From assembly GCA_013115125.1 (NCBI GenBank), contig JABANN010000161.1, positions 1 to 58,841 on the forward strand: 58,841 nt of DNA, written 5' to 3'. The notes under the pieces are model-generated. The model searched no databases. It worked only from the letters and a program-made list of their open reading frames with translations, and was not told where the DNA came from. Within the stretch, counting starts at the first letter, position 1. Each line of letters starts with the position of its first letter. Shown here in pieces: positions 3,910 through 56,291 of this stretch. A program made the translations under genes and the position numbers. The stretch is from Perkinsus olseni (taxonomy: Eukaryota).

Positions 3910-3981
3910 AGTCGCTACCCGGATTTGAACCGGGGTTGTCACGGCCACAACGTGACGTCCTAACCACTAGACGATAGCGAC
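3910..3981 (-). tRNA. tRNA-His(GTG)
   Basis: GTCGCTA TC GTCT AGTGGTT AGGAC G TCACG TTGTGGC CGTGA CAAC CCCGG TTCAAAT CCGGG TAGCGAC: complete cloverleaf, 7/7 acceptor pairs, GTG anticodon. Confidence 0.95.
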
Positions 3982-3995
3982 AGATTCAGAACTGG

Positions 3996-4091
3996 AAAAC
4001 TTCACTCGCTGTGATCGTTAGTCTGTGATACGACCGCAGCAAGGACCTCCAGATCTTCAGTCTGGCGCTCTCCCAACTGAGCTATCTGGGC
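3996..4091 (-). ncRNA. tRNA-Phe(GAA) 5' two-thirds fused to a 14-bp hairpin and T4 (pseudo-tRNA or tRNA-derived ncRNA)
   Basis: Canonical nt 1-52 GCCCAGATAGCTCAGTTGGGAGAGCGCCAGACTGAAGATCTGGAGGTCCTTG; no TTCRA loop or 3' acceptor strand; hairpin at 4005-4043. Confidence 0.8.
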
Positions 4092-18183: not shown

Positions 18184-18213
18184 AGGTCGCAGGTTCGATT
18201 CGAAGCGACGGCA
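18184..18213 (+). other. tRNA-derived variable loop/T-arm (B-box) remnant, intergenic
   Basis: AGGTC GCAGG TTCGATT CGAAG CGACGGC A. Confidence 0.55.
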
Positions 18214-28049: not shown

Positions 28050-29250
28050 GGTTTAACACAAAGCTAGTAGCACTTCATCACTGTTCAGTAGGACACGAGA
28101 GAACTGCCATACCCGATCTGGGTCGAGTCAGCGGTCTCTAGTGTCCTACCTCCACATCTAGGGAGCGGAGGGCTGAGTTGAGCTCGTGTCCGCCATCATC
28201 ACAATGTGACGATCACAACCATCACATCTCATGTTTGCATCGGTTGCTAGAGCTTTACTAGCTCTAGCAGTGAACGCCATTGAAGTACTGCGGCGGCTCA
28301 GGCCGTACAGCCTACTGCGCACAAAATTTTGTCCGCCGACGTACAAACGAACGATCTTTTCGCTCACGCCGATCCTCCTACGAGGGATTCACACCACAGA
28401 TCACACCCAGACAGCGACGACACTGGTTTTATGTGAATACCAACATGGATGAGCTAGAGGGACCCACCTGCGTCTGCCACTGCACTTGACCATTGGCAGG
28501 CAGGTTGACATGGCAGATGTAGCTGAGGGCGTGCGGCACTGTTATCACCCCGCTGGGCGCAAGCTCGCTGAGCGCCTCTATACACGTCCCAGCTCCCGCC
28601 AAGTTCTTCTCGACATTCGAAGAGATCCGAAGGTCCAATAGACTGAGAGGAGACTTTTATAAAAACACCCCTCCCCGGAATCGAACCTGCGCCTTACGGT
28701 TTATTTCTCTGGTCCACGCCGGTATGCCGATAACACTTAGCCTTCGCACCCCAACCACCCGTTGGTAGCTGCTCAACTACCAGCTCTTGTTGTCTATTGG
28801 AATCCCACACTCGACACTCCTTCTCGTCAAATAGTTTCTGAGAAAAAAAGAGGATCTTCATGACGACCACGCCTGCTACGAGAGAGTCACTCGAGGGAGA
28901 ACCCAGCATGATTCAGTCGCTAGCCTATGGGCGTTGGTATGGTTGCGAGTGGCGCGCGCCCAGTTGATCGATCGCACCAACGGCCAATTTCAGAGCAACC
29001 TCATCCTTCACTTTCCCACAGCGGTCGAATGAGACGTACGACTGAAGTAGCATGAGAAAGCTTCCCACCTCCTCTCTGGCGATCTCGAGCCACTTGGGCA
29101 GCATGATCTCCCGGCTGCAGACCTCTTTCACAGCCTCGGACACAGTAGTGACGTTATTGGATACCCACGACCCGACCAGCTGACTACATTCCAATCGCTG
29201 ATTCAGTTGAAGCATCTCCTTCCCTAGCTGCATTGTCTCTGGTGGGGTGG
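28050..29250 (-). CDS. Multi-exon hypothetical protein (contains CDGC motif)
   Basis: Successive minus-strand ORFs joinable by GT-AG introns, e.g. 28643-28697 (RNKP|LLDLRISS). Confidence 0.5.
28643..28697 (-). other. 55-nt intron carrying tRNA T-loop, 3'-end spacing and T5
   Basis: GT AAGGC GCAGG TTCGATT CCGGG GAGGGGT G TTTTT ...CTCTCAG; splicing joins two ORFs in frame. Confidence 0.65.
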
Positions 29251-33799: not shown

Positions 33800-35452
33800 T
33801 TCTACATAATGAATCAAGATTCCCTCGGTTATACAGGTATCCTACTCAAAAGCGAATTCTACGAGTCCGAAAGATACTCACCTCCGGTACCTCCGATACA
33901 GTGTAGCTGTCGTTTGAGGAGCTACTGGGCTCCGTCGGCTCATCCATGGCCAAAATCATATTACCCAGACGTTCCTTCCCAGAGGCATCAATGGCTTCCT
34001 GCTGCCTCTGCAGTTCAGCCAGCCTCGATCCATCCACTAGGGGCTCGGGTTGGGGTGGCATGTGGTGGTGACAGCAGCAACCACAACCGCCATATCTGAC
34101 AGTAATATACCCATGCCGAGGATCGAACCTGCGACCTTGATAGCCGAAAATAACGCTTCCTTGAAGTTGTTCCTTCCATGGAGACTGCAGGCGCCTCACT
34201 GTACCGATATGAGTAACAGTTCATCATCATTGCAAGTGTCAGAGCATAGAGGCATTCACAAGCGGCAATGAAGGGGGAGTGCCCGCCATATCCAACGAAC
34301 CCTCGTTGATTTGGGCAAAATGCGGTAGGTCTGCCACTTTCAATTGTTTTACTCGTTGTTTCTCCATTCTCACAGGTGTCGCAACCATGTGCAGAAATAC
34401 ATGGACGACACCATTACACCAGAACGCCCGCTTGAGAGATCCTCGACAGAAGCCGATCGAGCCCCTTTAACCTCTCTAGCTCGCTAAAGGACTCCCGCAA
34501 TAGTATTTCCCAACGGTACAGCATTTCACACGATGACGATTGCTCCCAATTCAAATCGACACACACTGGGATTGCGGGATATACCAATTGTAAAACGGAG
34601 AATCGATTCTGGAACCACAATTTACGCGTAAAAATCGATTCCAGAATCGATTCCGAGTTTCCGAAGCACTCAATTGAACAGGTGGGACTGCATCGGCACG
34701 ATTGGATAAAGACAGAAGAAGTCAGTACTGATGGTATCTTGCATACTACAGCAACCACTGCTAGTACTGTTAACGACACGCCCAATATAATTGGGAAGAG
34801 ATTGAAAGAAAATACGTCAACTAGCCTAGCGACCCTGAGACCCTCTCTGGAACTCACAGGAAGGCCATCATGATCATCGCAAGGGTGGTAATGATGTTGA
34901 ACGATGGGAAGGGCATTTGCGCGAATAATAATAAGAGGCCTGTCAAGGGCTGAGTACAACGAGGTGCTGCGTGCTGTGGGTTAACCGGACACCGAGTTTC
35001 TCTATTCATGAGCTCACCAACGACCAAAAGACCTCTTATTCTCGGGCCACGCTTCCCTGACCCACTGCTTTCGAGGTCCGCACATCGCGGCAGGGGAACA
35101 GCTGAAGTCAGGACGAGAGCGGAAGCAGAGGAGCTCAGCGTCCCCAACCGGAACGAAAGGACGTATGGTAGAGGGCAATCGTTATCGTCAGGTTGGGGCA
35201 GTGGTGATTCCGAGGGGGTTCAACTAACCGAAGCTGGAACTAGTTTATTAACCAAAGAATCAGTCTTGAACCGGCTCGGACAAAGGGCACTATCAAAAAT
35301 GCAAGCTGCGGGAATCGAACGCGGAGTCTCCGCGTATCGAGTTTACAAGTTACGGTGCTCCACCACGGAGATATCACAACCCGATGTGAAGTGAGTTTAG
35401 ACGAACGGTTACGCGCTCAACGACCAGAGGTCTTCGGGGATAAATCGACATT
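33800..35452 (-). CDS. Multi-exon hypothetical protein
   Basis: Series of minus-strand ORFs; intron 34096-34135 joins RYFRLS to RYGGCGCCC; boundaries uncertain. Confidence 0.4.
34096..34135 (-). other. 40-nt predicted intron whose donor lies in a tRNA variable loop (AG|GTC), followed by a T-loop
   Basis: AAG|GTC GCAGG TTCGATC CTCGG CATGGGT A TATTACTGTCAG. Confidence 0.55.
35295..35380 (-). pseudogene. Degenerate tRNA-Thr(TGT)-like element with T5
   Basis: TATCTCCGTGGTGGAGCA (D-arm-like), CTTGTAA loop, GTTCGATTCC, then 5+7+1 nt spacing to TTTTT; acceptor stem unpaired. Confidence 0.55.
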
Positions 35453-45479: not shown

Positions 45480-48218
45480 TATTATCACAGCACCAGCAGG
45501 AGAATAGACGACACAAGTATTGCTTCTGTGTAACAAAGCCACCAGCCTGGAGACCCACGCAAAGTCGCAGCGAAGCGCGAACTCACGTCACGAGGCTTGG
45601 CCCTCCGACCGGCTGACCCCCCTCCGAGGGCGTAAAACGATCGCTGACTGGTGGCATGGGCGGCGTCAAACTGCTCCCCTGTCTGTATCAGTAGCTCCCT
45701 TTGTGTGGCCGTTGGCAGCACTGAGATCGGCAACAAGTACCTGCCGGAAACTGTGGACCGGGCGGAGGCTAGACGGGCCCCCACCTCAAATTTCCGCCGT
45801 ACACGACCCGACCGGAAGGGCCCGGGACGCCACTCTGAGCTGCTACTAACTCCAGCAGTGGCCCCTTGGGGTCGAACACGCCCAGAATAATAGAGTCCAC
45901 CGTGCCTGGGATGAGGAGGGCGTGAAGAGGGGCGCCGAGCGAGGACCTACTTGACTCAGCCCTCAGCCATCTCGAAAGGCAGAGCATTATCTGGGGCAGA
46001 TAGGCCAGCAGCTCCGAGTTCAGTTTGCTAGTGCCTGACCGAGAACCACTCGGTGTGCCTTCTCATTGTTGTTAAGGCCCTTGCCTGCCCGGCCTAGTGC
46101 CGTCTCCTGTCTGCAGTAGGCTTCTAACTTCCTCGCGCTCTCGGCCGGGCTATCGAAACCATTGACTATCTGAAGCACGACAGCCTAGTAGCTTCTAGTA
46201 GCAGCAGCGGTACCTCCTCGAGGGACTTCGCGTCTGTTGTGTACTGTTGTTGACGAGAGCCGGGCAGGAAGCCCCGGTGAAGCAGGTTCGAGGCCTCCGC
46301 CCCCAGCCCGGTGGCGCCGAACGACCGATGGTGAGAGTCCGTTGAAGAGCCGGGGAACATCACTACCACTCTTGAACGTGAAAGGGGGTGAACTCAAAAC
46401 ATTCAGAAAAAATCACAAAGGTTTGCTGCTGCTGCCGCTGCTGCTGCTGCACGTGGTGGTGTCGGCCATGCCCGTCATCATCATCGAAGCGGCCTTTAGC
46501 ATGCGATACTCCTCCATCTTGGCGTCGAAGGCCTCGATGTACCTGCAAGGTCGCCTAGGGTTTCTATCGGACGTTCGACCTTACGGTGCCCGCTGGTCGT
46601 CGGTCATAGCCAGCCATTGCCGGGCCGCGATAACCCCGAAGGCAGAGGCTTCTATTGGTCGGCTGGGATCTAGCAGACGGGCCATGAGAGCCTCTCGTCC
46701 GCGGCAGAGCTCACTCAGTTTTCTAGCGTTGTGCAGCTGCACTCTGGCGAAGGCTAGGTAGGCACTGCACGGCCGCTGAGGAGTTGTTAAGGTGTTGATT
46801 TCGGAGAGGAGGTCCTTGTGAGGGGCGGGAGGGGCCGTCGTCGCCTGGGAGCTCACCAACGGGGGTGTGGACTCTGGGTGGCTGGGCTGGGAGCCTGAGA
46901 TCATAGCCAAATCAATGACGACGGTTGCTGCCGACGAAAGAAACACAGGAGTGGTCCTGCAGGAGGTAACAGGGAGGCGTGAGCTACCGCCGGGCTAGTT
47001 GTTCCCGTGAGAAGTTGTACTATCGATCCAAAGTCTCGCACTGCAGTGGTTATCGGGCGTTGGCTACCGTCAGGAATGGTATCTCTCAAGAGCCAACCAT
47101 GTGAATCTTTGCGCACCGCCTGGATTTTTCCGGGAGATGAAAAAATCCATGTTCGCAACCTGGACTCCTCGAAAACTACTCCGCGGCAATTGGGCTCATA
47201 GAGCTGGATGAGGTCCGGGGCTCTTTGCGTCAAGTCACGCACGAAAAGGGCTGGGGAAGCCTAGAAGGCCTACTGGCCCCGTTCATTCTCTTTAGTCTCT
47301 TCGCCGGGCGCCCATAAAGGGCGTTGATGCTCATCCTCTTGCCACCAACGACGGCATCACCCGGCCCGAGTGCCGGTGGGGGAGCCCGAGGGAGGCCAGC
47401 GAGCTGTGCGATGAACTGAGGGGGAGGTACGGACTGATGCGACACTCCGACAGGGCGACGAGCGATGGGAGAATTGAGAGCAGCGCATTACGATGATCGT
47501 ACGACGGATGCTGACCTACGTCAAGTCTGAGCTGGGGGCGTGCGTGCAGAATCGCAACCACCATCTCGAATAGGTGATGGTCTGGCACGGAGGCGAACAT
47601 CTGACTGATGCCAGCTCTAGTCGAATCTTGTTGACTCATATCTTGCAAGAGTCGACCTATCGCCAACACCAACCCTCTCCTCCCCTGGCGCCAACAGCCG
47701 TCACCCTCTGGACTCCAACGCAAGAATGTAGGCTCAGTAGCTAGAACCGATGGTAGGTTGTGAGTGCTCAACGCTAGAAAAGTCTTCAATAGTCAAAGTA
47801 GCAGCAGCAGCAGCAGCAGCAGCAGCAGGCCTCTAATTGGAACACTCTATCATTCCAGCTGCCGGGGCGAGACCACCGGAGTCCACTCATCCTCGTCGTC
47901 ATCGTCCCCGTCTATCTCCCAAGGTTGCACTGTATTCTTTCGTATTTTGCTTGCAGTGTTCACACTGACATTCAAGTTGGTCAGGCGTTCGTCCAGTAGG
48001 GATTGCTCGAGGGTAACAGTGTCGCAGGGTATGAGCCTGAAAGACAAAGAGTATGTTGCCACAGCACCAGCGTTACACCATGACTCATGTTCAATCGGCG
48101 TGGTTGGAACCCGAACCCGACGTGGTCATCGCAGTACCCAGCCCGGGAAACCCGAACTCACGGATGTTGCTCATGAAAGTGTCACTTTACATTGGAATGT
48201 GTCTCTGAAATTTTCCAT
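45480..48218 (-). CDS. HMG-box-containing protein (locus limits uncertain; may be more than one gene)
   Basis: PQRPCSAYLAF...AARQWLAMTDDQRAP|YIEAFDAKMEEY HMG box at about 46500-46790. Confidence 0.65.
47800..47826. repeat. (AGC)9 microsatellite
   Basis: Seen directly in sequence. Confidence 0.9.
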
Positions 48219-48259
48219 GTTCTCTCCCAAGGCTACAGGGGTATGCGTCTTTATCGTAC

Positions 48260-50721
48260 TTACTCTCGGCCAGGGGTCATCGTAGCAAGGGTCGATTCCC
48301 GCTTCAAGAGAGCGCCCAAGGCCCCGAGGTAGTGGGCATGACGGAAATAGAGGGCCTTCATGCGGCCTCCCGTCCAGAAGTTGAAAGACGACTGTATCGA
48401 GCTGAATACCTGACAGAGGGAATCTTAGCTCGATGCTTGCAAAAAACAAAAGATACTCCTAAGCAAGGTCATCGACCTACCTGCAGCAGGTGAGTATCCA
48501 AAAGATACCCCACAAAGACCACATTGTCGATGCCGTACAGGCTAGCATGAAGATACGCCAACTGACCTGTGTTCATGGACATGAGGTTCATCAAGGACCT
48601 CGCTATCTCCGAGCTTTTCACCTGCCCACCACCATCAGCGTATTGCCCTGCCATCTCTCGCTCGGCATTCCGCTTACATGCTCCCGTTGTTCCTTGTTAT
48701 TAGCCTTACCGAAGCTCGAGGCCACAGTGTTGCCCTTGAGGCCTATGGATGGATAGTCACCGCCGTAGATGTCCGAAACCAGCAAGTCCAATGGTGAAAA
48801 ATCACAAGTCTTGCCGCACCGTAGAATATCTAAGAATAGTAAAAACAGGAATCGAACCCGCGACCTACGCGAGCGAAGCGCACCGGCCTAACCAACTGAG
48901 GTACCTGCAGGTGTTCTCGAACACTTTGCTGGAAGCATATGCCTGGCCATCCCCATCACCGTCGCCCCGCCTATCGGAGACCCTCCCACACGATACATCG
49001 ATCTGCCAGAAAGCAATCCTCCCCGAACCCAGCCAGGCGTCCTCATCATTACATTGGTGAATCCACTCTGTAAAAACTCGTACCGCTCTTCATGCTAACC
49101 ATAAGGAACGGAAAGATACTTTGGAACTTCTCCGACTTCACAAACTCCATTCCCTCGACCAACTCGGGATTTGACGGCAGAGACCCCGCCAGATTGACCC
49201 CCTAAAAGCAACCCTACAAGATCAACCATCAGCCCCCTCCTCTACTACTGAGTCCTTCCCGATGTTAGGGAAGTAGAAGCACTCTTGTGGGACATGCCGC
49301 AAAACGTAGTTGATCCCAGCCAGCACACAGGCCGACTCACGATGCCGCTCGCACCTTGCCCCCAGTGAGCGCTCGATAGCTGACACAGACGAGATGGTTG
49401 GACTTGGCCGTCGGATGAATGCTCCTAGTACAGTCCTGAAGCCTCCAAACACCGCTGCCTACTCCAGCGAAGGAGTTGCCCTTGCTCTTCCTTTGTAGTG
49501 ACAGGAGGTACTGGCCAACCTGAATGAGAATTCTGCTGCCAATGGGCTTGGGAATGATACAAAAACGGCGCGATAACCCACTGACTAGAAAGGCCACCCC
49601 GGCCGACTAACGCTCGAGCTTCTCCCCGAAGCGGCAACAACTTCAGTCACCAAGGGACCATTAAACCCGTTCTCTCAGCAGCGGCGGATATCGAGCACGT
49701 GCATTCATACCGCCAGCGATCATCCCAATGGTCAGGCTGCATCAGCGACTCCTCCCCAGTGAATCATACCTCTGTTGATAGGAACTGTTGTGTATCATTA
49801 AGGTCAAAATCCACGAATCTTATCTCGCTCGCATCGTCCGTACTCCTTATCGTCCAATCCTCCATCCCTTCGTTCCACTCACTAGACGCTAGGGAAGATG
49901 CTTGCGACTCCGTACTGTCAGCCGGACTCTCGGCGGGGCTCTCATCGCCTACAGTGCCACAAAGTATCAAGAAACTGTTGCGGACCGCTCCCAAGGAAAG
50001 CGTGTAAGTTTGGAAATCCCAAGATAAATTTTAAGTCAAGATCCGCTATAATGTAGAATTCACCCCTGCACAACCAATTAACCTCTCTAGATGTCTCGTA
50101 CCGCACCATCCACAATAATTGCTATGGCGAGGACTTTGCTCGAAGGCCATACAGTTCAAAAGGCCCGGGTACACCACAATTGATCTTCTGACTAGTAGAG
50201 GAGACTGGAGATGGACTGCGAGGAGGAGTTCTTCCGCCAAATCGGTTAAGATGGCCCGGTGGTCCAACACCGTCTGATTAGCGGAAGGTGTGGTACGCGG
50301 ACTACTGCTTCAGTACTTTCTGAAGCAGCATATACTCCCGCTCCAGCTATTGTCGGACTCTGTCAGTCCGACTCCTTCCTCTCGTCGATAATGCCTCAAT
50401 CCCTCGAGCGCTGCCTCGCCCTCCTAGCTAACGAATCATGCGTACAACGCAGGTCGATGCTCGTTAATTGTACGGATCACTTCCTCATAACAATTTCCAA
50501 TCTCTACTACATTATCGACGACGCAGTAACAACCAAACGCCCCGCCGCTGCCGCCGCCCACTACTACTGCTTCCTGCGGAGGCGTGTCTATGCGACCTTC
50601 TCCGCCCAGCCAGAAAACTGAGGTCAGTTGGTATGGGGCAGTCATCGGTGTCGGAGGCCCGGACGCGGACTGCAATTTTACCGATGTTGCCGCCAAGATC
50701 CACTCCGACGAGATTACCCAT
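48260..50721 (-). CDS. PANK: Type II pantothenate kinase, divergent
   Basis: VGVDLGGNIGK, FPFLMVSMKSGTSFYRV, RVGGSPIGGAT, DLLVSDIYGGDY..IGL...VASSFGK, FWTGG..KALYFRHAHYLGALGA. Confidence 0.9.
48830..48904 (-). other. 75-nt PanK intron consisting of a tRNA-Arg(TCG)-like body
   Basis: G TA CCTC AGTTGGTTA GGCC G GTGCG CTTCGCT CGCGT AGGTC GCGGG TTCGATT CCTGT TTTT ACTATTCTTAG; removal restores the PanK frame (GCA G|AT). Confidence 0.85.
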
Positions 50722-50981
50722 AATAATGGAAAAAAGCAACCTGCTTGAGTCCCCTCCGGAATGAGCTTCGCTCCGCTCATCATACACTCCTTTTTTACTT
50801 AATCACGAAGAACATACTCCTGGCTGATCTGATGCCGTCGGGCGCGCGCTATTGCACGCCATTTTTTTTCAAATACTGATTTGTTCTAACCAGCCTTCAA
50901 TTACTCGTTCAACACAGCGACAAGACCGTTTAGGATTCATAGAAACTCATGATTGTGATAAAAAATGAAAACCCCAAAAAA

Positions 50982-53900
50982 TCAGATACGACTTTCCGTC
51001 TTCAGATTGATCCCCGGGCCCACTACACTCGGCACCTAGTGAGAGCGCCCATCAGAAGCAGATACCCCAGCAACCCGTCTCCGTGGACTACCTCGACATG
51101 CACACTGGCCCACTCGGGTTCTCGGCGCTGCTTCAACGCTCTGATGCCCTCGGCTGCCTCCTTCCCAGCACGGAGGTGAGCTATCACAGTCGCCACTGAA
51201 CGGGTGAGCTCCGCTGTCCCCTGGAAAAAGGCGGAGCGTAGTTTTTTCGGCCGCCTTCAGTGCTGCCCACCATCTCCTTCTTTTCCATATTAAAAGCCAG
51301 TTTCTTCAACTCACTGACAGCATGAGGTTCGCTCAGTCTAATGCGATCAGCCACCGCTTGCAGGGCCGAGTCCAAATCGGTCTTCCTCTGAACTACTATG
51401 TCAACAATCCCTGAGCTGACCAGTCCGACGCCGAGGGAGGCAGAGACTCCTACCGGCTGCCTTCGCCTCATCGGCGTCGATCGGAGTGGCTAGCGCCGCT
51501 AAGCGGACGGCTGTCAAGGGGCCAACACGGCGTATGACAAAGGGAAGGATAGTCGCTGGACAAACGCCTGATGGGAGGGGAGATCCACTCGGCCGGAACA
51601 AAGCTTTTTCCCGGGGAAGGCTAGATGGATTCATCCGAGCGGGCATGGGCCAGGCTCATCAATGGGAGGTGACTCAGCCGTCGTAGCAGAAACATCTCGG
51701 ACTGAATGGAGTGGAAGATGGGGCAAAGTATGGACGAACTCCGGAGTTGTGAGTATTTCACGCACGATTATACTGATCTGGCTAGACGATGGAGTGCTCA
51801 GTAGTTCGACACCGAGGTATCCCGGGCTGAAGTTCAGCGCGTCGGGACCAAATCCAATATCTACGATAATGATCAGACTACCAAGTTTAACCTCGGACAG
51901 TGTGAGCTCGGTGCTCTCTCTAGAAGCGATGACCATATCGCAGGCAGCAAGGAGTCCCCATCCACCGCCAAACACGCGCCCTGATACCGCGCAGACTAGG
52001 AACTGAGAGCAGACCACTCACAACCCCGACGATTTAACCAGGCTGCTGACCTGGGGAATTCTGGCCAGTTGAGTGAGAACTCGGACGAAATTACTCGCGC
52101 CTTCAACGTTTTCAGCCAAGGACCTGCCGCCACCAACTCAGTGGAACGGCCGAGATCCCCCAACCCACTCACACGGCTCGACTCCTGCTGAACTCTCTGG
52201 GGTCCAGACCAGCGCAGAAGGTACGGCTGTCCGGAGTGGCCCTCAGCACGACCAGACGAACCTGCACTCAAATCAACAACGAAGCCGTTCGAATGACGGT
52301 CTACATTGCGGCGGACGTCAGCGTTGTTGGTGAGGAGATCTGTGCACCTAGTCAAGGAGCCCATCATCTCGTCGGTAAGGGAGTTGTGCTCCTTTGGTCT
52401 GTTCAGTATCTACGATTGGTGTGGTATTGTTCTAAAAAGCGATTGGGAATGCTAATGATGATCTGTGGTTGACATTGTTCGCCGTTCCCCATGCCCTTAT
52501 ACGACTGTCCTTTTTTACTCATTATTTTGCGTCAATCCGCCCGTGCGGTATGTTACAGCCCTTCCCTCCCGACCGGCACTCCTACCACACCTCCCTCATA
52601 TTACGATCTCAGCGACGTGCTTGGATATGTGTACGACAAAGTCGAAGCCTTTGCCCGAGAACCCCATGCACTCTGCCGAAAAGTGCTGCAGCTCCGGCAC
52701 CTTGCTAGGCCGAACGTCGTCCAGCTGATACAGAGAGGGACCGCAATAAGAGGTCCCCAGAGGACGGCCAAGCTTACCGCTATCGACGGCATGAGGAGAG
52801 GCATCTGCAGAAGCATCTGACCGTAGGACTTGCCGAGGTTGTCCGCATGCAGAGAGGCCATACCTAGGAGGATCGTCCCTGTGTGGCTAGCGGCTGAACA
52901 GGTGCTCACCTCCGCCGCCGAGTATGTCGGTCAGCAGGAAGTTGAAGGCCCCGAGGCCAGGGACGTCGTAGCGTACCTGAGGTACCCTAGGGGGAGGAGA
53001 GAGCGAAGCGCTTACACAGGACGTGCTGGGGAGGTTCCACCGACTCTTGAAAAACTGTCGGACGGCATCAGCAGTGATTTGATGCTTGATGAATGGCAGA
53101 TATCTGAGTAAGTACGAACAGTCGTATCTATAGTCGACCGTGGTAAGATACGGAATAGGTGCCCGGAGTAGTGTCACACAGTTCAGACTGGGATCCACCA
53201 TAACCGATGGACGCCCTCGTGTCACCTCTCATTCCGAGCGAAGAGTCCAACATTAACATTATTCCCTTTGTCACCAGATCTCGCATAGCATACACGAAGC
53301 AAATCGACCTGATAAAAGATACTCTTCGGCTATTTTGTAACACGCAAGGTCGACCTCAAGATACGCTGCGATGACACTGCTATCCGTGAACAGTAAGCCT
53401 TGCAGAATCGACAAGATAGCACCGGAAACTATTCCCTAGTCGATCATCATTTCAAGTGCTCAATCCCGGCAGTCAGCGATCAGCAAGTGGGGCACCACCG
53501 AGCTAATGACATTAGCTGCCGAAGCGCGCGGGTTTTTTTAGCATTATTCTTGCACGGCATGAAAAATACGGAAATTGCGGTATGATACTGCACGAGTTCC
53601 AACTGTAGGTTTCAATACCACACTTCTGAAGCATCTGTACTATCACAGCGGAATTATGTCGATCGTTCATGACTCTGGGAAGGTCACAGACCACAGGAAA
53701 AATTCCAGAAAAAAATTAGAAAGCTTCACCGTATGGACCTCCCGCCCCCTGCAATTTCGAGCCCACGATGCCCAGAGTTGACCGCGGCCAATCGGACAAT
53801 ACACTTAGCGGGCCTTCTTACTGTCTCGCAAGGAGAGAACTCATGAGGGTCCGCGGCCTGAACGACGGGGACGCGTTCTGTGGTATGGGGCCAATGGATA

Positions 53901-56291
53901 TTGACCGGCCCTCCTGATGGCTGCAGTTGCCGCTCAGCTCCATTCCCTGGCGAAAAGATCTACTGGAAAAAGGATAGAAAGGATGAGGTACCAATTTGTA
54001 TCTTAGGTGGAAGCTTGCTCTTGGCGGCTAGCATCGGAACCATGCGGATGATCGCTTGCGGCCGGGCGCGGCCTCCAGTGAAGCCAATGGTGCCTGGGCC
54101 ATGCTAACTTCAGCATAATCTCTCAGGACAAGACCCACACACACTATCGTGTATCGCTCGCAACTCGTGGTCTCGAGGTCCCGGGTTCGATCCCCGGACT
54201 GGTATTTTTTACCTGGAGCCATCGACGTCCCTGCACTGATGAGCTCGTTGGCTAACAGCTGCAACACCTTCCTGTCTTGATGCTTCGCCGCCATCCGTAC
54301 CACTGCCTGTGAGTTAAATCAAACCAGCCTCACGTCACCCTCCCTCGGACGCACCTCGAAATCGCTGCCGATGGTCTCGATCCTGGTTTCGTCCAGACTG
54401 ATGCCCAGGTGCCTCTCGACCCCTGCGACCAAGGCCTCAGACGCTCCCCAGTGACCATCCCCTCACGTTTGATAATCGCCTCCACCGTCTTGCGTGCCTT
54501 GACCTCGGCATTGTGGCCTCTGACGATGATACTAGTGGAGACCTTGAAGCCGTCTAGGTAGGTACCTCACATCAAGGCAGTAAAACAGGAACCTTCATCA
54601 AAGCAACAATATCATCTACCACAAACTTTGTAGGTTTCCGTCGGACACTTCCCTCGAGCGTTGGACACTCGTACCACATTATTCCCAACTTGATCCACCT
54701 TGACTTGGGTGAAGTCACATACGACGTCCGGGACCTGGTCAGAGGTCTGTTGCACGGCAGAGCAAGGATGGCGCGCCCGTTAAGGGAGCCTGCTCAGATG
54801 CGCTGAAGTCGGTTTTTAACAGGAGAACAAGATGCGGTCATGGTTCACAGAAGACAGAGTTCACCAAAAACGAAGCGATTCGAAGAATAGGGAGAACGTG
54901 GTGGATGCCAAGGTGTAACGGTGTAAGGTGAAGGGATGATACATTTTCGTATGTTGCAAGGATCAACCTAAGATATCCCGGCGCATGAGTATCATTACTA
55001 GGGTTACATGCAATAGGAAGTCGACTGGCCTCTGCCCACACACGGACTAAAGCGACGTTGACAGGTAGTACAAACGACACGAAAAAAATACTTTCTGTGA
55101 CAAAAGGCGATAAGGGAAGTGAGACCACTATGCCTCCAAGTGGCAGGTGTGGCTGGAGGCAGCACTCACATGCAGGCCATGGTGGCCTCACTTTTCGAGC
55201 ATTACATTTTCCGCTACAGGCTGTGGTATTACTACTTACTATGTAGTTGCCAGGATCTCCAATCTCGTACAGGATTTGTTCCTTCACACCTTCAACCTAA
55301 GATACTCCTATATTCCCATACCACACCATCCGCTAATCACCATAACTCTGCCCCCTGTTCCGGGAGGCTTCGAAAGCAAGAACTCCCCACTAGCCAGGAC
55401 CTCCGCAATGGGGTAGCCTATGTTCGACCTGCCCACGGCAACTACGCCCCTCCTAAGCATCCTCCAGTACCATCCTTCCGCCACTCCCGTCTCGAGACAG
55501 TCCGTCATGAGCCCACCAGTGGCCTGGGCGCCGCACTCGAGGACGTGACCGGCCAGAGTCCCCGAAGCCATCAAGTCAAGGTCCTCCATAGACCATCCAA
55601 ACCTATCCAACTTACGCATGGCGAGCCCTCGCTGGCACCGTCCAGGCCTACTCATGAATGAGAGGCGCTAGCACCAGGGCCGAATCCACCACGCGGCCAG
55701 TGACGACGATATCCGCACCCCCAGCGAGGCACTCCACGATCGGAGCTGCTCCGAGATACCTATTTTGGGGATTCTGAGGAGGTGGTGTGTCGGAGGCCAT
55801 GACCCACACGTTAGCAGTGGTGAGACTCTTCCTGTGAGGGACATTGTCGATGAGATCCCCGATTTCCTTCAATACATCATCACCATATACCACACCAACT
55901 GCAACTCAATCGACTGATGTTAATTTTATGCTACTTTACTACCTTTAACCTCTCCCCAACCCCTCTCCTCATAAACTTTCTCAATAGCCGCCTTGCATGC
56001 TTTCGGGTTCAGCCCGCCGGCGTTAGTGATGAATTTGATCCCCTTCGCTTTGGCCTCTCCGCCCACCATCTTAATAACCTCTATAAAATCAGTAGCATAT
56101 CCCAACTTTCTTCCAGATCGTTGTTTGGCCGCATACAACAGCGACATGGTCAGCTCAGCTAGATAGTCACCGATAAGGTACTCCACTCGTCCTCTGCTCA
56201 CAAGCTGCGGTGCCGCCGTAAGACTGTCTCCCCAGAACCCACAGAAGCCTCCAATCCTCACACTATCTCTGCTGGCCACTGGGGCTGGCAT
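50982..56291 (-). CDS. AtuA (DUF1446)-family protein fused to an enoyl-CoA hydratase/crotonase domain
   Basis: GFWGDS, DYLAELTM, YLGA.PI, TGRVVDSAL, AGHVLECG.Q.TGG, ARSGDKG, then in-frame ILNRPKEHNSL, VFGGGWGLLAACD, LSEVKLG. Confidence 0.8.
54159..54210 (+). pseudogene. tRNA 3' half with perfect T-arm and T6, antisense within AtuA intron 54094-54212
   Basis: CTCGTGG TCTCG AGGTC CCGGG TTCGATC CCCGG ACTGGTA TTTTTT. Confidence 0.75.
55117..55193. repeat. Inverted repeat (14/16-bp arms, inner 8-bp stem) in a 505-nt intron
   Basis: AAGTGAGACCACTATG ... CATGGTGGCCTCACTT; inner TGCCTCCA/TGGAGGCA. Confidence 0.75.

Follow-up and report, generated by a model that had tools for sequence, protein, structure and literature searches.

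The pantothenate kinase (PanK) gene of Perkinsus olseni, an alveolate parasite of molluscs, contains a 75-nt spliceosomal intron whose body derives from a tRNA gene. The gene lies on the minus strand of contig JABANN010000161.1 (assembly GCA_013115125.1), positions 1 to 58,841 of which make up the 58.8-kb stretch of DNA that was analyzed and that we call the window. This window, public RNA assemblies, protein collections, and published papers formed the evidence base. All six of the exon translations tested matched Pfam Fumble (PF03630), in colinear order over profile positions 96 to 334. The intron is located between profile positions 193 and 199; the translation of the exon upstream of it, SMYRVGGSPIGGATVMGMARHMLPAKCSRTPA, corresponds to positions 169 to 193, and the exon just 3' of it is 100% identical to NCBI P. 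olseni pantothenate kinase 1 proteins and 90% identical to a Perkinsus chesapeaki protein.

Splicing was assessed by aligning two metatranscriptome assemblies (X1 and X2) over positions 47900-49900. The initial annotation of this DNA had proposed the junction 48905/48829, and it is the one used in both assemblies: a 928-nt contig of X1 and a 1306-nt contig of X2 join 48829 to 48905 and omit the 75 nt between them, which are bordered by CT..AC on the plus strand, that is, by GT..AG on the strand of the gene. Neither contig differs from the exons by a single letter. The other PanK introns are likewise removed (seven of the eight joints in each run, and eight joints across X1 and X2), and all eight are GT..AG on the minus strand once ambiguous cuts are adjusted. 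It had also been claimed that removal of the intron keeps PanK in frame, and this is what was found, since the unspliced reading frame meets a stop whereas the spliced frame stays open (...PAKCSRTPA/D/ILRCGKTCDF...) and is identical to the annotated P. olseni PanK proteins P0001 and P0002. Each of 20 RNA runs from 12 studies contains 0.54 of the words sampled from the stretch, while exon-only arithmetic gives about 0.55; X1 and X2 are the two of these runs that were aligned, and for the rest we infer splicing from the word share. Two raw-read runs (X23 and X24) had 0 reads aligned to 47900-49900 and hence were uninformative. These results show that the spliceosome removes exactly positions 48830-48904 and that this is an ordinary, used U2-type intron (GT..AG, phase 1). 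On the gene strand its termini are GTACCT...TCTTAG, and a run of five T's (T5) precedes the AG by 11 nt; the eight introns of the PanK gene did not yield a clear branch consensus. A 45-nt intron of a neighboring gene (53947-53991, minus strand) starts GTACCTCA, the first eight bases being those of the PanK intron, and a GTACCT donor, which has no G at +5, is therefore usable here.

Nucleotides 2 to 60 of the intron align with tRNA positions 8 to 65 in a single unbroken register (Table 1), as was apparent in the alignment to R1, a covariance model of the tRNA body (positions 8 to 65) built from 13 tRNAs, none of which was picked for its likeness to the intron. Conserved positions of tRNAs include U8, A14, R15, G18, G19, A21, Y32, U33, R37, Y48, G53, T54, T55, C56, R57, A58, and C61. 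The intron agrees at 16 of these 17, with T8, A14, G15, G18, G19, A21, C32, and U33 all present; the exception is position 37, where there is a C instead of a purine. The gap-free mapping described in the initial annotation was recovered together with the features listed in it (the D-loop bases, the anticodon stem, AGGTC, the T arm, the T run, and the terminal TAG), as were the absence of an acceptor stem and the weakening of the D stem, which retains two of four pairs around AGTTGGTTA and precedes the 5-bp anticodon stem. The pairs of the anticodon arm, with the anticodon TCG at 48874-48876, are kept both in the R1 alignment and in the minimum-energy fold. Some details of that description had to be amended. 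The A and B boxes had both been called intact, and this holds for the B box (GGTTCGATTCC, 48848-48858), which is exact and whose pattern was found four times in the window, but not for the A box, which has one mismatch, a C at position 10, to the consensus, which has G there. The T5 run said to follow the T arm is present, but its first T is T65 of the T stem, so that the run overlaps the stem by one base. The intron is composed of a 59-nt body, four further T's, and an 11-nt tail; the 3' strand of the acceptor stem is missing, and the T run occupies its place.

Whether the similarity to a tRNA could be a chance resemblance in a GC-balanced intron was examined with two scores. A motif score that combined the 17 conserved positions with 14 stem pairs gave the intron 25.5 (16/17 positions and 9.5/14 pair points), a value that 0 of 5,000 dinucleotide shuffles reached (mean, 16.3; standard deviation, 1.4; maximum, 22); the tRNA reading of the initial annotation thus survived the comparison with shuffled sequence. 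Over 117,570 window positions the intron ranked second, after a true tRNA-His gene (30.5) and ahead of a tRNA-Phe relic (24.5) and the best unrelated site (23.0), and it scored highest among the 11 mapped introns of at least 57 nt (25.5 versus at most 22). R1 was run on the whole window with its filters off and matched the intron over the full model (1 to 58) at 32.4 bits, with an E value for the whole window of about 3e-8 that is rough by the tool's own warning. The other R1 scores were 54.2 bits for the tRNA-His gene, which belongs to the R1 training set, 21.8 for 54147-54197 on the plus strand, 21.6 for the tRNA-Phe relic, and 11.4 for the best of the remainder, which leaves the intron 21 bits above the best background match in 117 kb. 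A blastn search against 2.3 Gb of phage DNA returned only marginal E values (0.05 to 7), with 22 of the 40 matches listed falling under annotated tRNA genes and the best spanning intron nucleotides 2 to 58 in register.

Several points limit the case for tRNA descent. In addition to the roughness of the R1 E values, both R1 and the motif score were devised after the hypothesis had been stated. When all Rfam families were searched, with E values multiplied by 4,227 families, the tRNA match had an E value of 0.31 when 551 bp were scanned and of 5.6 over 9.9 kb; unrelated families gave similar scores in the 9.9-kb scan, and the all-family scan of the whole window (E up to 10) does not list the intron. 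The Rfam tRNA model (RF00005), which expects an acceptor stem, gave 18.9 bits versus a gathering score of 29, and a search with the bare 61-nt body listed no tRNA row, just weak matches to YrlA and to the T arm of transfer-messenger RNA. An all-family Rfam scan would not have carried the case by itself. The weakness of this match and of the individual blastn E values is what a chance resemblance has in its favor. However, the PanK intron is the sole Rfam tRNA match in the 9.9 kb that contain the 34 introns mapped here, no shuffle reached its score, R1 separates it widely from the background, and the D loop, anticodon arm, variable loop, and T arm all fall in one gap-free register. We consider the probability of a chance resemblance to be negligible, and derivation of the intron body from a tRNA gene is confirmed.

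A different question is whether the tRNA-like body is functional now, as an RNA polymerase III (Pol III) unit, as a binding site for TFIIIC, or as an acceptor-less tRNA-like RNA produced after splicing. Such a function would account for the retention of 16 of the 17 conserved positions and for the Pol III type 2 features that are present: an exact B box, an A box with one mismatch at normal spacing, and T5 right after the T arm. The intron nevertheless cannot be a working tRNA because it has lost its acceptor stem and the greater part of its D stem; no acceptor stem was found in the flanking bases, where one was sought, and position 37 is a C. ARAGORN, run on the window, called only the tRNA-His gene and not the intron, and the Rfam score falls short of the gathering score. 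Of the class I tRNAs held out of R1, eight scored 37 to 57 bits, all above the 32.4 bits of the intron and including two annotated as possible pseudogenes (37 and 41.5 bits), while one further held-out class I tRNA gene with an odd T loop scored 25.2 bits; 32.4 bits is the score of a worn tRNA copy. Thermodynamic stability was ruled out as a sign of function, since the predicted fold of the intron (-17.3 kcal/mol) has a z score of +0.30 and was equaled or bettered by 116 of 200 shuffles. RNA depth over the intron was zero in both the X1 and X2 assemblies, which carries little weight, since contigs assembled from such small, poly-purpose libraries can miss small or rare RNAs. Nor is the architecture of a tRNA-derived short interspersed element (SINE) seen, as T5 comes directly after the T arm and only 11 nt remain. 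A present function therefore appears very unlikely, and the Pol III element or acceptor-less tRNA mimic that the initial annotation had offered as an alternative is unsupported. The tRNA part probably has no present function except as a spliceable spacer.

The initial annotation had proposed a tRNA-Arg gene as one possible source. Of this the descent from a tRNA gene is supported, and Arg(TCG) is a tentative parent, indicated by the anticodon triplet only. The closest of 28 sequences compared was a phage tRNA-Thr (47 of 55 aligned positions), followed by a metagenomic tRNA-Arg(TCG) (43 of 56 aligned positions). A pattern scan of metagenomes that combined the D loop, TCG, and the T arm found one contig, which carries a tRNA-Arg(TCG).

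How the tRNA sequence came to be an intron was considered against the intron landscape of two genes. When proteins P0002 and P0009 were mapped onto the window, the 34 introns had a median length of 50 nt, so that the PanK intron exceeds a minimal intron by about the length of a tRNA body. Only 11 nt of it are neither tRNA body nor T run and typical introns are about 50 nt long, so that entry of a tRNA gene is the most likely beginning. Our preferred reading, which we hold to be more likely than not, is that the intron is a tRNA-gene fossil that arose when a copy or piece of a tRNA gene was inserted into the PanK coding sequence, for instance as filler during break repair or through the dispersal of tRNA gene copies. 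The insertion would have created the intron or wholly remade it, with the tRNA-derived DNA itself providing splicing signals. In this scheme G7 and U8, placed behind an exon ending in CAG, would serve as the GU donor, the Pol III terminator-like T run would probably serve as the pyrimidine tract, and the short tail would provide the branch site and the AG. Gain of an intron from a tRNA gene is plausible, to judge from the sequence, because only tRNA-derived DNA and an 11-nt tail lie between the splice sites.

The main rival to this explanation is that an older intron, not created by the tRNA, hosted a complete nested tRNA gene or received a tRNA fragment, which decayed as the intron shrank toward about 50 nt and the donor slid onto G7-U8. 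Perkinsus is rich in tRNA gene copies, according to PMC3706591, and short introns prevail in the mapped genes. These two genes extend over approximately 10 kb, about 4.1 kb of which is intron, so that neutral insertions would often land there. A neighboring 119-nt intron, described below, contains a tRNA relic in the opposite orientation together with 53 nt of unrelated sequence. However, the 5' side of the PanK intron is purely tRNA derived, with 11 nt after the T run, and shrinkage would need the loss of nearly the whole of the older intron and the remaking of both of its signals. Both relics also abut the donor, which random nesting does not predict. We regard nesting followed by shrinkage as a serious possibility, if a minority one.

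Other considerations bear on gain by insertion. The P. chesapeaki protein, which is colinear across the junction, is silent on the presence of the intron in that species. Neither a target-site duplication nor break-repair microhomology was found at the two ends; the only repeat, of 6 nt, is at the 3' junction and one-sided. The antisense orientation of the second relic fits random nesting of tRNA genes in introns as well as it fits intron creation. The position of the relics within introns was rejected as an argument, since introns fill much of the noncoding DNA and location in them is not remarkable.

Two observations at the junction were made post hoc. The 6-nt sequence TATTCT in the intron tail (48833-48838) recurs at bases 2 to 7 of the next exon (48823-48828) and could be a templated repair copy or the product of chance. 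Compared with two fungal or animal-type kinases, Perkinsus PanK carries three additional residues immediately before the junction. Both agree with an insertion but are weak pointers.

A second intron with a significant tRNA relic is located about 5 kb from the PanK intron, in an AtuA-like/enoyl-CoA hydratase gene. The two relics lie one in each orientation, and each is against the donor of its intron. The junction of the second intron (54094-54212) agrees with the annotated protein P0009, and the antisense strand of this intron has the second-highest tRNA score among the 11 mapped introns of at least 57 nt. In the relic a degenerate body is followed by a T arm with perfect pairing, 7 nt of the 3' acceptor strand, and a run of six T's (T6). 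Its end lies 2 nt from the exon, and those two bases, AC, are complementary to the GT donor of the intron; the relics have in common a T run followed by AC. Rfam matched only the T arm of this relic.

These two introns raise the possibility of a tRNA-derived repeat family, resembling introners or SINEs, that generates introns and has given rise to many of them in Perkinsus, with the PanK intron as one of its copies. The proximity of the two relics, their shared position against the donor, and their common T run and AC would be expected of such a family, as would the distribution of B boxes followed by at least five T's, which occur at three sites in the window, all three in annotated or RNA-supported introns, versus 0.067 sites expected from shuffles, an expectation that is too low because shuffling destroys natural T runs. 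On the other hand, no near-identical copy of the PanK intron was found in the window, where core matches extend to at most 18 nt, and the core common to the tRNA-like sites is no more than about 17 nt that tRNAs conserve in general. The weaker sites have nonsignificant R1 scores (E of 0.32 to about 6), and neither terminal repeats nor target duplications were seen. We consider a repeat family to be quite unlikely.

A related idea, which we also rate as unlikely though slightly less so, is that the dispersed tRNA gene copies of Perkinsus are recurrent seeds of spliceosomal introns that can be spliced on arrival in either orientation. In the sense orientation the built-in signals would be the G-U at positions 7 and 8, the AG/GU in the variable loop, and the oligo(T) terminator; in antisense, they would be the A-rich complement of the terminator and, next to it, an AC that is read as GT on the strand of the gene. 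A single process would then have yielded both the sense PanK intron and the antisense 54094-54212, and this process might be linked to the breakage of tRNA genes at position 8, the site at which Dada transposons cut.

Some further tRNA-like sites were noted in the window. A 55-nt intron at 28643-28697 has, in order, GTA, a T-arm-like segment containing a B box, 8 nt, T5, and an 18-nt tail; it looks like a shortened PanK intron, with an R1 score of 9.4 bits that is not significant (E of 0.32), and is the third of the sites at which a B box precedes at least five T's. The T-arm-like pieces at 18184-18201 (plus strand), 34122-34139 (minus strand), and 28677-28687 (minus strand) were rejected as relics on the basis of R1 E values of 0.32 to about 6. 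The first two of these share the 17-mer AAGGTCGCAGGTTCGAT, which covers the variable loop and half of the T arm and is nearly matched by the PanK intron, and 34122-34139 is followed 26 nt later by the acceptor of an intron of roughly 760 nt that is predicted for protein P0010. They might alternatively be similar short coding motifs or peptides. R1 matches at 52035 and 46242 were also rejected, being at the level of a hairpin only. The tRNA-Phe relic lies about 60 nt upstream of the tRNA-His gene on the same strand and keeps its 5' two-thirds, with the T arm and 3' end replaced by unrelated sequence.

The public gene models disagree over 46416-56291 on the minus strand. The P. chesapeaki protein P0004 fuses the upstream hydratase gene with PanK, P0002 fuses PanK with a downstream HMG-box region, and P0003 omits the two exons that precede the tRNA-derived intron. 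The X1 contig runs on from the PanK domain over a 227-nt intron (48037-48263). Pfam searches with the short exons of the neighboring genes gave nothing useful.

Table 1. Coordinates of the PanK intron, its tRNA-like parts, and other features of the window (R1, covariance model of the tRNA body)
Feature	Position	Strand	Basis and remarks
Upstream PanK exon	48905..49002	-	RNA contig pieces; 3' end CTGCAG with one base of the Asp codon
75-nt phase-1 GT..AG intron	48830..48904	-	Skipped in X1 and X2 RNA contigs; same junction in P0001/P0002
GT donor (tRNA positions 7-8)	48903..48904	-	Sequence; R1 alignment begins at U8 = 48903
A-box-like segment TACCTCAGTTGG (tRNA positions 8-19)	48892..48903	-	Sequence; strict A-box pattern fails, relaxed pattern matches
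Anticodon arm, 5-bp stem (two G-U), loop CTTCGCT	48867..48883	-	Sequence
Variable loop AGGTC	48862..48866	-	Sequence; R1 alignment
T arm GCGGG-TTCGATT-CCTGT	48845..48861	-	T-arm scan; R1 alignment; 5-bp stem, two G-U
T5 run	48841..48845	-	Sequence; directly after T stem with one-base overlap (T65); terminator-like
Tail ACTATTCTTAG with AG acceptor	48830..48840	-	Sequence
Downstream PanK exon (..ILRCGKTCDFSPLDLLVSDIYGGDY..)	48678..48829	-	RNA contig pieces; Pfam Fumble E 5.1e-12, profile positions 199-246
119-nt intron, AtuA-like/enoyl-CoA hydratase gene	54094..54212	-	Junction TSMAPG/TIGF agrees with annotated P0009
Antisense tRNA relic	54147..54210	+	R1 21.8 bits, E about 5e-5; T arm 5/5 pairs
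tRNA-His(GTG) gene, intact	3910-3981	-	ARAGORN
tRNA-Phe(GAA) relic	4040-4091	-	Rfam 27.4 bits, R1 21.6 bits
55-nt intron	28643-28697	-	Junction NKP/LLD supported by annotated P. olseni protein P0008

Literature searches, judged by titles and the beginnings of abstracts in a collection that covers few subscription journals, turned up no spliceosomal intron described as consisting of the body of a tRNA gene. The nearest precedents are introns derived from mitochondrial DNA and a p-SINE1-like intron of rice. p-SINE1 is a tRNA-related SINE, and Iwamoto et al. (1998 and 1999, cited in PMC3151243) are said to have described a p-SINE1-like intron in the rice catalase gene CatA. Like the PanK intron, it is ascribed to a Pol III-type, tRNA-related element; unlike it, the PanK intron has neither a tRNA-unrelated body nor a SINE tail, its T run comes directly after the T arm, and its host is an alveolate parasite. 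Introner-like elements were reportedly treated by van der Burgt in 2012, and introners resemble the PanK case in that inserted DNA supplies or recruits splice signals and is spliced out. However, the definition of an introner requires numerous near-identical copies in introns, frequently bearing transposon hallmarks, and no such copy of the PanK intron was found in the window. Introners and introner-like elements are dealt with by Gozashti et al. 2022 (PMC9860276), in which the terms "Perkinsus," "tRNA," and "SINE" have 0 occurrences.

The review PMC3443670 describes a spliceosomal intron of mitochondrial DNA origin (Curtis & Archibald 2010) and a Daphnia intron homologous to mitochondrial 16S rRNA. 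As in PanK, the body of these introns is recognizably copied from prior nonintron sequence, and insertion as filler DNA during repair was proposed for them there; the tRNA-copy entry model given here for PanK follows that proposal. The PanK intron differs in that its source was a nuclear tRNA gene and not organellar DNA, in that its donor GU comes from the conserved tRNA positions 7 and 8, and in that its gain is a proposal made from the P. olseni sequence. The terms "tRNA" and "SINE" have 0 occurrences in the text of that review.

Within the genus, Kojima & Jurka 2013 (PMC3706591) report that Perkinsus marinus has hundreds of copies of some tRNA genes, e.g., 349 of tRNA-Leu, and that its Dada transposons insert at TAGCTC, corresponding to tRNA positions 8 to 13. 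Those accounts concern tRNA genes of the same genus that are broken at positions 8 to 13, the start point of both intronic relics, but Dada elements insert into tRNA genes and not into protein genes. No Dada sequence was noticed beside the relics, although no search was aimed at one. We record the fact that both relics begin at position 8, as at the Dada site, as a coincidence only.

An identifiable source is rare among spliceosomal introns, the known ones being captured mitochondrial DNA and transposon-like introners. In the PanK intron the source is a tRNA gene, and conserved bases of the tRNA probably act as splice signals. Introns of this kind may be picked up when tRNA scans are run at relaxed thresholds and should not be annotated as tRNA genes by gene callers. 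If the gain holds true among Perkinsus species, the intron would be a clean and datable case of Pol III gene DNA becoming an intron of an RNA polymerase II gene, and it would tie the unusual abundance of tRNA copies in the genus to the evolution of gene structure. The interest would be greater still if tRNA genes prove to be repeated seeds of introns genome-wide in Perkinsus.

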